Translations under genes and position numbers: made by a program
Shown: positions 2,902 through 53,489 of the stretch, piece after piece
Layout: each line of letters starts with the position of its first letter
Numbering within the stretch: position 1 is the first letter of the stretch
Assembly: GCF_965641715.1 (NCBI RefSeq)
Contig: NZ_OZ282453.1
DNA length: 64,000 bases
Direction: 5' to 3' (one strand)
Source of the DNA: Escherichia coli
GTDB lineage: Bacteria > Pseudomonadota > Gammaproteobacteria > Enterobacterales > Enterobacteriaceae
The notes under the pieces: generated by a model
Told to the model about the DNA's origin: nothing
The model's input: the letters and a program-made list of their open reading frames with translations, nothing else
The model's database searches: none

Positions 2902-3348
2902 TTATTCATTATCGCCCGGGATGTCTTCTTGTCGGGAATTGCCCAGAGCAATAAATTCCTCTAACAGATGGGTTAACTGTTGCATTTTCTCGGCAGTAAA
3001 CTGAGCTTCAATCTGCCGATAGGCTTCTTCAATCTGTGTCTGAGCGCGGTTATACAGCGCCTGCCCCTCTTTGGTCAGCGAGATATAGAGCTTCCGCTGA
3101 TCATTGATCGGCTTTAATCGCAACACTAGACCGTCGCGTTCCATCCGCGTGAGGATCCCGGTCAGGCTTGGGCGCAAAATGCAGGCGCGATACGCCAGAT
3201 CGTGAAAATCCATTGATGGGCTTTCCGCCAGAATACGCACGATGCGCCACTGTTGCTCAGTCAAATTATGCCGTTTAACGATTGGGCGAAAATAACTCAT
3301 CGCCGCTTCTCGCGCCTGGAGCAACGCAATGGTTAGTGAGTCGTGCAT
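2902..3348 (-). CDS. hpaR: MarR-family repressor of the homoprotocatechuate pathway
   Basis: ORF 2902..3429; likely start at internal Met (MHDSLTIALLQ...) giving about 148 aa; MarR-like wHTH; divergent from hpaG. Confidence 0.85.
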   Translation of the reverse strand: MHDSLTIALLQAREAAMSYFRPIVKRHNLTEQQWRIVRILAESPSMDFHDLAYRACILRPSLTGILTRMERDGLVLRLKPINDQRKLYISLTKEGQALYNRAQTQIEEAYRQIEAQFTAEKMQQLTHLLEEFIALGNSRQEDIPGDNE

Positions 3349-3570
3349 TATCTTTCCCCTGAAAAATTCAAAATCATTAATATAGAAACAGTTAATCGTC
3401 ACGTTACCGGGACTGCGCTGTCCCTGCAATTCCTGATTTTATCAAAATTGATGATATTTTATTAACTTACTGATATTTAATATTTTATTATCTTTAAATG
3501 TAAATAGTTTGTTAATTAGATCACATTTACATCACTTACTTTTGCCAAACTACGCAATCGGGAATAAAAG

Positions 3571-3594
3571 TAATCATTAACATATTAATGATTA
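3571..3594. promoter_or_regulatory. Perfect 10-bp-arm palindrome in the hpaR-hpaG divergent promoter region; candidate HpaR operator
   Basis: TAATCATTAA-cata-TTAATGATTA, 26-49 bp upstream of the hpaG ATG inside an AT-rich spacer. Confidence 0.5.
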
Positions 3595-3619
3595 AGATGA
3601 TCGAATCCGAGGAGTGGTA

Positions 3620-4909
3620 ATGAAAGGCACTATCTTCGCCGTAGCGTTGAACCATCGCAGCCAGCTTGATGCATGGCAGGACGCGTTCCAGCAATCCCCC
3701 TACAAAGCCCCGCCTAAAACTGCGGTCTGGTTTATTAAACCGCGCAATACGGTGATTGGTTGCGGTGAACCGATTCCCTTTCCACAGAGTGAAAAGGTAC
3801 TGAGCGGTGCGACAGTTGCGCTGATTGTGGGAAAAACGGCGACGAAAGTACGTGAAGAAGATGCGGCAGAGTACATCGCCGGATATGCGCTGGCTAACGA
3901 CGTCAGCCTGCCGGAAGAGAGCTTTTACCGTCCGGCAATCAAAGCAAAATGTCGTGATGGATTCTGCCCCATTGGCGAAACCGTGGCTCTCAGCAATGTC
4001 GATAATCTGACTATCTATACCGAGATCAACGGGCGTCCTGCCGATCACTGGAATACCGCCGATTTACAACGTAACGCCGCACAGCTGCTGAGCGCCCTGA
4101 GCGAATTTGCCACGCTGAATCCAGGCGATGCTATTCTGCTCGGCACGCCACAGGCGCGCGTGGAAATACAGCCAGGCGATCGCGTGCGTGTTCTCGCAGA
4201 AGGTTTCCCGCCGCTGGAAAATCCGGTAGTGGACGAACGTGAAGTGACCACGCGCAAGAGCTTCCCAACGCAGCCACACCCGCACGGCACGCTGTTTGCC
4301 CTCGGCCTGAACTACGCCGACCACGCCAGCGAACTGGAATTTAAGCCACCGGAAGAACCGCTGGTGTTCCTGAAAGCGCCGAATACCCTCACTGGCGATA
4401 ACCAGACCTCCGTGCGCCCGAACAATATTGAATACATGCACTACGAAGCGGAGCTGGTGGTGGTGATTGGCAAGCAGGCGCGTAACGTCAGCGAAGCCGA
4501 TGCCATGGATTATGTCGCGGGCTACACCGTGTGTAACGACTACGCCATTCGCGACTATCTGGAAAACTACTACCGCCCTAACCTGCGGGTAAAAAGCCGC
4601 GACGGACTGACGCCGATGCTTTCAACCATCGTGCCGAAAGAGGCGATCCCGGACCCGCATAATCTGACCCTTCGCACCTTCGTCAACGGCGAGTTACGCC
4701 AGCAAGGCACCACCGCCGATCTGATCTTCAGCGTGCCCTTCCTGATCGCCTACTTAAGCGAATTTATGACCCTGAATCCGGGCGACATGATCGCCACCGG
4801 CACACCAAAAGGCTTATCTGACGTGGTGCCTGGCGATGAAGTAGTGGTGGAAGTAGAAGGCGTGGGCCGCTTGGTGAACCGAATTGTGAGTGAGGATACA
4901 GCGAAATGA
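3620..4909 (+). CDS. hpaG: Bifunctional OPET decarboxylase / HHDD isomerase (FAH family, duplicated domain)
   Basis: 429-aa product; GGAG SD 5 nt upstream of ATG 3620; stop overlaps hpaE start (ATGA). Confidence 0.9.
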   Translation: MKGTIFAVALNHRSQLDAWQDAFQQSPYKAPPKTAVWFIKPRNTVIGCGEPIPFPQSEKVLSGATVALIVGKTATKVREEDAAEYIAGYALANDVSLPEESFYRPAIKAKCRDGFCPIGETVALSNVDNLTIYTEINGRPADHWNTADLQRNAAQLLSALSEFATLNPGDAILLGTPQARVEIQPGDRVRVLAEGFPPLENPVVDEREVTTRKSFPTQPHPHGTLFALGLNYADHASELEFKPPEEPLVFLKAPNTLTGDNQTSVRPNNIEYMHYEAELVVVIGKQARNVSEADAMDYVAGYTVCNDYAIRDYLENYYRPNLRVKSRDGLTPMLSTIVPKEAIPDPHNLTLRTFVNGELRQQGTTADLIFSVPFLIAYLSEFMTLNPGDMIATGTPKGLSDVVPGDEVVVEVEGVGRLVNRIVSEDTAK

Positions 4910-14902: not shown

Positions 14903-14918
14903 TGTGATCTCAATCACA
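14903..14918. promoter_or_regulatory. Consensus CRP site upstream of btsT
   Basis: TGTGA-tctcaa-TCACA, exact match to TGTGA-N6-TCACA, directly abutting the hpaC terminator. Confidence 0.7.
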
Positions 14919-22483: not shown

Positions 22484-22549
22484 CAACTCTCTTTTGTGCC
22501 TTCTGCAACCATCATGTTGCAGAAGGCCTTGTTTTTCATGGAATACAAC

Positions 22550-25776: not shown

Positions 25777-25800
25777 TTCCCTCGCCCTCAAAAAACCAAT

Positions 25801-25822
25801 AAAGCGGCTAAATAGCCGCTTT
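25801..25822. terminator. Hairpin after hsdS
   Basis: AAAGCGGCTA / TAGCCGCTTT inverted repeat preceded by an A-run and followed by TTATT. Confidence 0.55.
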
Positions 25823-25903
25823 ATTCACATCACCAAAAATTATATTTCACGCTAAACTTCATCTTATTTTCATTAATTTTTAGCTGGACTTCCCCTGTAT
25901 TTA

Positions 25904-26345: not shown

Positions 26346-26371
26346 ACCCGGTAGCGCCAGTGCTACCGGGT
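26346..26371. terminator. Hairpin between convergent symE and the GmrSD-like gene
   Basis: ACCCGGTAGC-gccagt-GCTACCGGGT followed by ATTATT. Confidence 0.65.
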
Positions 26372-47212: not shown

Positions 47213-47283
47213 TTTCAGCAGTTGTTATTAAAGGATACCCTTTTGCGAGGGTATCCTTTCAGACTGATAACAAACGCTACATT

Positions 47284-53460: not shown

Positions 53461-53489
53461 AAGCGCAAGGAACGTTTACCCTTGCGCTT
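53461..53489. terminator. Bidirectional hairpin between yjiC and uxuR
   Basis: AAGCGCAAGG-aacgtttac-CCTTGCGCTT. Confidence 0.7.

Follow-up and report, generated by a model that had tools for sequence, protein, structure and literature searches.

The perfect palindrome TAATCATTAA-CATA-TTAATGATTA between the divergent hpaR and hpaG genes of E. coli is, with a probability that we put at about 0.93, the operator to which the MarR-family repressor HpaR binds with high affinity, known as OPR1 in E. coli W. It lies in a stretch of 64,000 nucleotides, which we call the window and to whose first letter all coordinates refer. The identification with OPR1 is based on sequence identity with strain W, on a secondary source and on what is reported of the original work, and it is almost certainly right. 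The primary paper on the E. coli system is that of Galán, Kolb, Sanz, García and Prieto (2003, Nucleic Acids Res 31:6598). The feature has already been described, the operator having been published since 2003, and the finding is correct but ordinary. The initial annotation picked a true regulatory site from the raw sequence, and the operator itself adds nothing new. What is mildly new comes from comparison only: an 18-bp recognition core, a constrained spacing of ~199 bp between two operator copies, an IHF-consensus element at a fixed position and a flipped operator centre in rare strains.

The host of the window is E. coli (99.4% identity over 1 kb to NZ_CP116241), and about 2071 of 5426 complete genomes carry the hpa locus. 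In the RefSeq E. coli annotation, which also gives the name hpaR to the repressor gene, the complete cluster reads tsr / hpaR / hpaGEDFHI-hpaX-hpaA-hpaBC / btsT. The start codon of hpaR appears as CAT on the plus strand at 3346-3348, and a spacer of 271 bp (3349-3619) with a G+C content of 29% separates the two divergent genes. The MarR fold of HpaR is indicated by the Pfam families PF01047 and PF12802 on close homologues and by strong matches to MarR-family crystal structures. We compared the locus with its counterpart in E. coli W, the source of the characterised HpaR. It turned out that HpaR of the window is identical to that of strain W at 148 of 148 residues. The spacer of strain W is also 271 bp long and differs from that of the window at 8 sites, all within columns 50-139. 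Both operator copies (3371-3394 and 3571-3594), the CRP-like site, the inferred -35 and -10 hexamers and the leader are identical in the two strains, and there is no change in 3498-3619. Since the HpaR protein and the operator copies are the same, the results obtained with strain W apply directly to the locus in the window. The coordinates of the features are collected in Table 1.

Table 1. Features of the hpaR-hpaG region in window coordinates, with the evidence for each
Feature	Position	Strand	Evidence
hpaR, MarR-family repressor gene, 148 aa	2902-3348	-	NCBIfam TIGR02337 HpaR equivalog, 201 bits (cut-off 121)
Distal degenerate operator copy, AAATCATTAA-TATA-GAAACAGTTA	3371-3394		12-nt exact word shared with main palindrome; conserved position
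Conserved island: distal site	3373-3382		MAFFT alignment
Conserved island: TTAA and TGAT	3462-3465 and 3471-3474		MAFFT alignment
IHF-consensus site (predicted), TATCAGTAAGTTA (WATCARNNNNTTR)	3463-3475	-	Exact consensus match
Conserved island: TGTAAAT	3499-3505		MAFFT alignment; just upstream of CRP-like site
CRP-like site TGTTA-N6-TCACA, TGTTAATTAGATCACA	3510-3525		One mismatch to TGTGA-N6-TCACA; half-sites at least 80-100% conserved in 50 Enterobacteriaceae
Conserved island: TCACTT	3532-3537		MAFFT alignment
Inferred -35 hexamer TTGCCA of the hpaG promoter (Pg)	3542-3547	+	TTGC..AA at least 95% conserved in 50 species
Conserved island: ATAAAA / TAAAAG	3564-3570		MAFFT alignment
Inferred -10 hexamer TAAAAG of Pg	3565-3570	+	ATAAAA 80-100% conserved; 17 bp after -35
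Main HpaR operator (predicted), perfect 10+4+10 palindrome	3571-3594		Sequence, shuffles, conservation in 78 species, strain W identity
Conserved island: main operator core	3574-3591		MAFFT alignment
Shine-Dalgarno GAGGAG of hpaG	3609-3614	+	At least 95% conserved; 5 bases upstream of ATG
hpaG, first gene of the hpaGEDFHI meta-cleavage operon	3620-4909	+	NF011750, 975 bits (cut-off 811)

The initial annotation had claimed a perfect inverted repeat with 10-bp arms and a 4-bp spacer, placed 26-49 bp upstream of hpaG within the divergent spacer. The repeat is present, with its arms at 3571-3580 and 3585-3594 and its centre CATA at 3581-3584, and the distance to the ATG of hpaG at 3620 agrees. Using shuffles of the spacer that preserve the dinucleotide composition, we found a perfect inverted repeat with arms of at least 10 bp and a gap of at most 10 bp in 249 of 20,000 sequences (p about 0.012). 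The palindrome by itself is only moderately improbable in A+T-rich DNA, and it is the conservation across species that makes the case. One could suppose that the palindrome has no function and arose by chance in intergenic DNA rich in A+T, since perfect inverted repeats as large as this one turn up in about 1.2% of the shuffled spacers and conservation does not extend to the outer 3 bp of either arm. This explanation is effectively refuted by the core positions, which are invariant from Escherichia to Photorhabdus in an otherwise poorly conserved spacer, by the exact preservation of 3568-3595 in 2026 E. coli genomes and by a second copy kept at a fixed distance.

In the whole window, 0.01 occurrences of the exact palindrome pattern with up to 3 mismatches are expected. 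A search of the 64 kb for further copies of the 18-bp core with up to 3 mismatches gave none beyond the main site. The palindrome is also the sole A+T-rich perfect inverted repeat of such size in the window. Eight other perfect inverted repeats with arms of at least 10 bp occur there, at 1078-1107, 22498-22527, 25798-25825, 26346-26371, 47230-47259, 53461-53489, 58908-58928 and 60951-60974. They contain G+C, which would also be true of terminator stems, unlike the A+T-only operator; the first of them lies just downstream of the convergent genes lgoT and tsr.

We then determined how the site is conserved. Scanning species-representative genomes with an alignment of HpaR, we obtained 80 loci, which extend from Escherichia to Photorhabdus, Xenorhabdus, Yersinia, Serratia, Hafnia and Edwardsiella. 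Divergent hpaR and hpaG genes are present at 77 of these loci, and the remaining three are truncated where the available sequence ends. These 77 loci and the window make up the set of 78 Enterobacterales spacers. The proximal operator site was found in all 78, at a distance of 34-67 bp from the ATG of hpaG, with the exception of one Photorhabdus in which the distance is 179 bp. Eleven positions are invariant in 78/78 (T3574, T3577, T3578, A3579, A3580, A3582, T3585, T3586, A3587, A3588 and A3591), and T3583 is kept in 77. The consensus of the 18-bp core at 3574-3591 is T[CT][AG]TTAA-[CT]AT[AG]-TTAA[TC][GA]A; the window reads TCATTAA-CATA-TTAATGA, and TTAA-N4-TTAA is present in every spacer. 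With 7-bp arms and a 4-bp gap, the centres of the half-sites are 11 bp apart, which is about one helical turn. The three outer bases of each arm carry only 0.4-1.0 bit of information across species, and the right-hand TTA (3592-3594) is essentially restricted to E. coli. Since these outer bases are poorly conserved, the perfect 10-bp arms have no cross-species support. Judging by the alignment, the functional unit is most simply taken to be an 18-bp dyad with 7-bp arms, and the perfect 24-bp palindrome a peculiarity of the species. Thus, of the 10-bp arms initially proposed as the operator, the inner 7 bp and the YATR centre stand, and the outer 3 bp are specific to E. coli. The proposal of an HpaR operator at the hpaG promoter is itself supported by the flanking hpaR and hpaG genes, by the conservation of the core in 78/78 spacers and by the conserved -35 and -10 elements that it abuts.

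Within E. coli, the segment 3568-3595 is exact in 2026 of the about 2071 genomes that carry the locus. About half of the locus-carrying genomes match the 30-mer 3568-3597 over its first 28 bases only, and a single mismatch in the 42-mer 3562-3603 was seen in 936 genomes. The likely reason is a common polymorphism at 3596-3597, just beyond the right edge of the palindrome, with the palindrome itself exact. In the complete E. coli genome E7-1N7 (NZ_CP134805) and in one species-representative locus (L002), the centre reads TATG, the reverse complement of CATA. In E7-1N7, a stretch of 842 bp holds only 8 differences, and the two centre changes are among them. For the change from CATA to TATG, a single minute inversion of the palindrome loop is a better explanation than two independent point mutations. 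Across genera the centre reads YATR, and both orientations fit this consensus.

To describe the surroundings of the operator, we aligned 50 distinct spacers of Enterobacteriaceae with MAFFT; they are mostly unconserved outside the islands listed in Table 1. For the promoter of hpaG, the arrangement TTGCCA-17-TAAAAG presents itself as the obvious candidate. Its predicted start is at about 3577-3579, inside the left arm of the operator, or in a wider estimate at about 3577-3581, and the operator begins one base after the putative -10 hexamer. A generic sigma-70 scan of the spacer did not call TTGCCA/TAAAAG and called three A+T-rich candidates elsewhere in the spacer. TAAAAG was missed because the scan requires a T at position 6 of the hexamer.

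The position of the palindrome between the inferred promoter and the ribosome-binding site raises another explanation, namely that it works at the RNA level, as a 5' leader stem-loop of hpaG that affects stability or translation of the message. A 10-bp A-U-rich hairpin with a 4-nt loop can be drawn (centroid -6.8 kcal/mol). However, the RNA folds no better than its shuffles (z = -1.0, with an equally good fold in 33 of 200), and the inferred start falls inside the left arm, so that the full stem is probably not transcribed. The outer three pairs of the hairpin are lost in most other species without compensation; it is the identity of the bases that is conserved and not their pairing. The distal copy, which has lost its right arm and kept its position, also argues against an RNA stem. 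We therefore consider a role in RNA very unlikely and return to the palindrome as a DNA site for HpaR.

Upstream of the promoter, the CRP-like site is centred at 3517.5, about 60 bp from the inferred start (near -60 to -61.5). This would be a class I position, and a function of CRP here is presumed from the sequence. A perfect CRP core, TGTGATCTCAATCACA, is found far from the spacer, at 14903-14918, after the hpaC-like reductase gene and before the start of btsT (15239), and presumably is the CRP site of the btsT promoter. Further towards hpaR there is the exact match to the IHF consensus. In the 78 spacers, searched in one orientation, 36 exact IHF matches were found; all of them are 114-116 bp from the centre of the main operator, and none is elsewhere. 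Alternatively, the segment 3463-3475 could be a third, degenerate HpaR half-site (ATTAA-N4-YTGAT). Its conserved bases appear to fit IHF better than an HpaR half-site.

The CRP-like and IHF-like matches in a spacer of 29% G+C make it probable that several proteins bind there, and the palindrome might serve a different protein instead of HpaR, for instance a nucleoid-associated protein or a regulator with a preference for A+T-rich DNA. We regard this as highly improbable. The site co-occurs with hpaR in 78/78 species, it is single in the 64-kb window even at 3 mismatches, and its 11-bp half-site spacing suits a MarR dimer. The published footprints, with which a comparison had been proposed in the initial annotation, point the same way: the form TTAA-N4-TTAA is the one protected from DNase I by purified Yersinia HpaR (PMC7180172). 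The reading of the palindrome as the HpaR operator is retained.

A second copy of the operator, which the initial annotation did not mention, lies 23-46 bp upstream of the ATG of hpaR and 200 bp from the main palindrome. Using a repeat finder, we showed that AATCATTAATAT (3372-3383) matches 3582-3593 exactly in inverted orientation and that 3372-3395 aligns with 3572-3595, 200 bp from start to start. A shared word of 12 nt arises in 0.6% of shuffles (P=0.006). The left arm of the distal copy is intact and its TATA centre is kept, and the right arm has decayed (GAAAC for TTAAT). In the operator matrix the distal site scores about 0 and the main site 27. With such a score, independent binding of HpaR at the distal site of E. 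coli is doubtful. Positions 3373-3382 are conserved in the 50 Enterobacteriaceae, and a homologous distal site exists in every one of the 78 species. Probably, this copy is OPR2.

The distance between the centres of the two operators, determined by the half-site rule, is 193-201 bp in 76 of the 78 species, with a mode of 199 bp; the exceptions are Pluralibacter (189 bp) and Yersinia (180 bp). For the distal site of Photorhabdus, the choice based on the matrix gives 205 bp and the half-site rule 197 bp, and we took the latter as the homologous register. The length of the spacer itself varies between 261 and 513 bp, with the additional DNA invariably inserted between the distal site and hpaR. 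A spacing that stays at 193-201 bp despite such variation indicates that the distance between the operators is constrained, as it should be if they are bound cooperatively or joined by a loop. We also considered a strict helical phasing of the two operators and rejected it: distances of 197-201 bp fit about 19 turns, but the values of Xenorhabdus (193-196 bp) and Yersinia (180 bp) cannot all be reconciled with it. The fixed spacing, together with the fixed position of the IHF consensus, gives indirect support for cooperative occupancy or looping. It is possible that the spacer holds a conserved three-part repression loop, which would extend the two-operator scheme of the literature. It would be composed of a strong operator, a weak operator ~199 bp away and an IHF-type site 114-116 bp from the strong and ~84 bp from the weak operator, with the register kept in genera ranging from Escherichia to Photorhabdus. 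Bending by IHF would then let the weak site fill and hpaR regulate itself. We offer this loop tentatively, as an idea that is rather less probable than its opposite.

Starting from the sequence, the neighbouring genes, the identity with strain W and the conservation of the core, the second site and the spacing, and taking HpaR binding, the start site, cooperativity, looping and inducers from the literature or by extrapolation, we propose the following mechanism. One HpaR dimer would contact the half-sites TCATTAA and TTAATGA, each with one of its two winged-helix domains. Bound at 3574-3591, HpaR would abut the -10 element and cover the inferred start; RNA polymerase would be excluded, or the open complex blocked, and hpaGEDFHI would be off. 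The weak distal copy at 3371-3394 would probably be filled cooperatively, with help from the strong site, via a loop of ~200 bp. This putative loop would enclose the IHF-type bend site and the CRP-like site, and it would also repress hpaR itself. Binding of homoprotocatechuate, 4-HPA or 3-HPA to HpaR would lead to its release from the DNA. For HpaR of Serratia, ITC detected no binding of 4-HPA or 3,4-HPA (PMC10364317), which counts against the inducer step.

The comparison defines the recognition core of HpaR more cleanly, as an 18-bp core and not as the 24-bp palindrome, and shows that the spacing of the operators is under selection. Possible uses are biosensors for 4-HPA or homoprotocatechuate made from HpaR and Pg, and the annotation of hpa clusters in other Enterobacterales.

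The closest known system is that of E. coli W itself. In 2003, Galán and colleagues reportedly obtained footprints of HpaR in this strain and found two operators, OPR1 and OPR2, in the Pg-Pr region. OPR1 is said to be a perfect palindrome over the start site of Pg, and OPR2 an imperfect site that resembles it, about 200 bp from it in the direction of hpaR. Reportedly, HpaR bound the two sites cooperatively, hpaR was autoregulated, and 4-HPA, 3-HPA and homoprotocatechuate were inducers. This description fits 3571-3594 and 3371-3394, which we take to be these two sites. The species, the 271-bp spacer length, the operator copies and HpaR are the same, there is no detectable difference, and apparently this is the same object. 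Unrelated uses of the name (HpaR of Xanthomonas, a TetR-type HpaR, HpAroK and the HPAR dye) were set aside.

In Yersinia pseudotuberculosis, EMSA and DNase I footprinting with purified HpaR at the hpaG1 promoter revealed two 15-bp TTAA-N4-TTAA sites (PMC7180172). They are at -8, overlapping the -10 element, and at -189, and were called "similar to E. coli W"; deletion of hpaR led to derepression (PMC7180172). In our operator scan, the Y. pestis locus likewise contains exactly two TTAA-N4-TTAA sites, 180 bp apart. As in E. coli, two sites lie in the hpaR-hpaG spacer of Yersinia, the proximal one over the core promoter. However, the roles of the sites are reversed: the perfect palindrome, TTATTATTAA-TAGC-TTAATAATAA, is found at the distal position in Yersinia, and the weaker site at the proximal one. 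The operators are also closer than in E. coli (180 bp versus 200 bp). In addition, Yersinia HpaR activates T6SS4 via a dissimilar site that is richer in G+C.

Other relatives are known from their structures, which are dimers of the MarR type. NadR of Neisseria meningitidis (PDB 5AIP) is the closest solved relative of the window HpaR (E = 6e-44). It responds to 4-HPA and has several operators flanking a promoter (PMC2791445). In contrast to HpaR, NadR represses nadA, which encodes an adhesin and is not a catabolic operon, and its operators and their spacing differ, being tied to a phase-variable repeat. HpaR of A. baumannii (PDB 7EL2/7EL3) is a more distant MarR-type homologue (E = 1e-32 to the window protein). 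In its complex with DNA (7EL3), the two winged-helix domains make symmetric contacts with a pseudo-palindromic operator. In general, operators of the MarR family, such as marO of E. coli, are likewise pseudo-palindromes in the spacer between the regulator and a divergent operon, lie over the core promoter and act by steric hindrance. The site described here differs from them in its half-site TCATTAA, which is specific to HpaR, and in its second copy, which lies 200 bp away and not adjacent.
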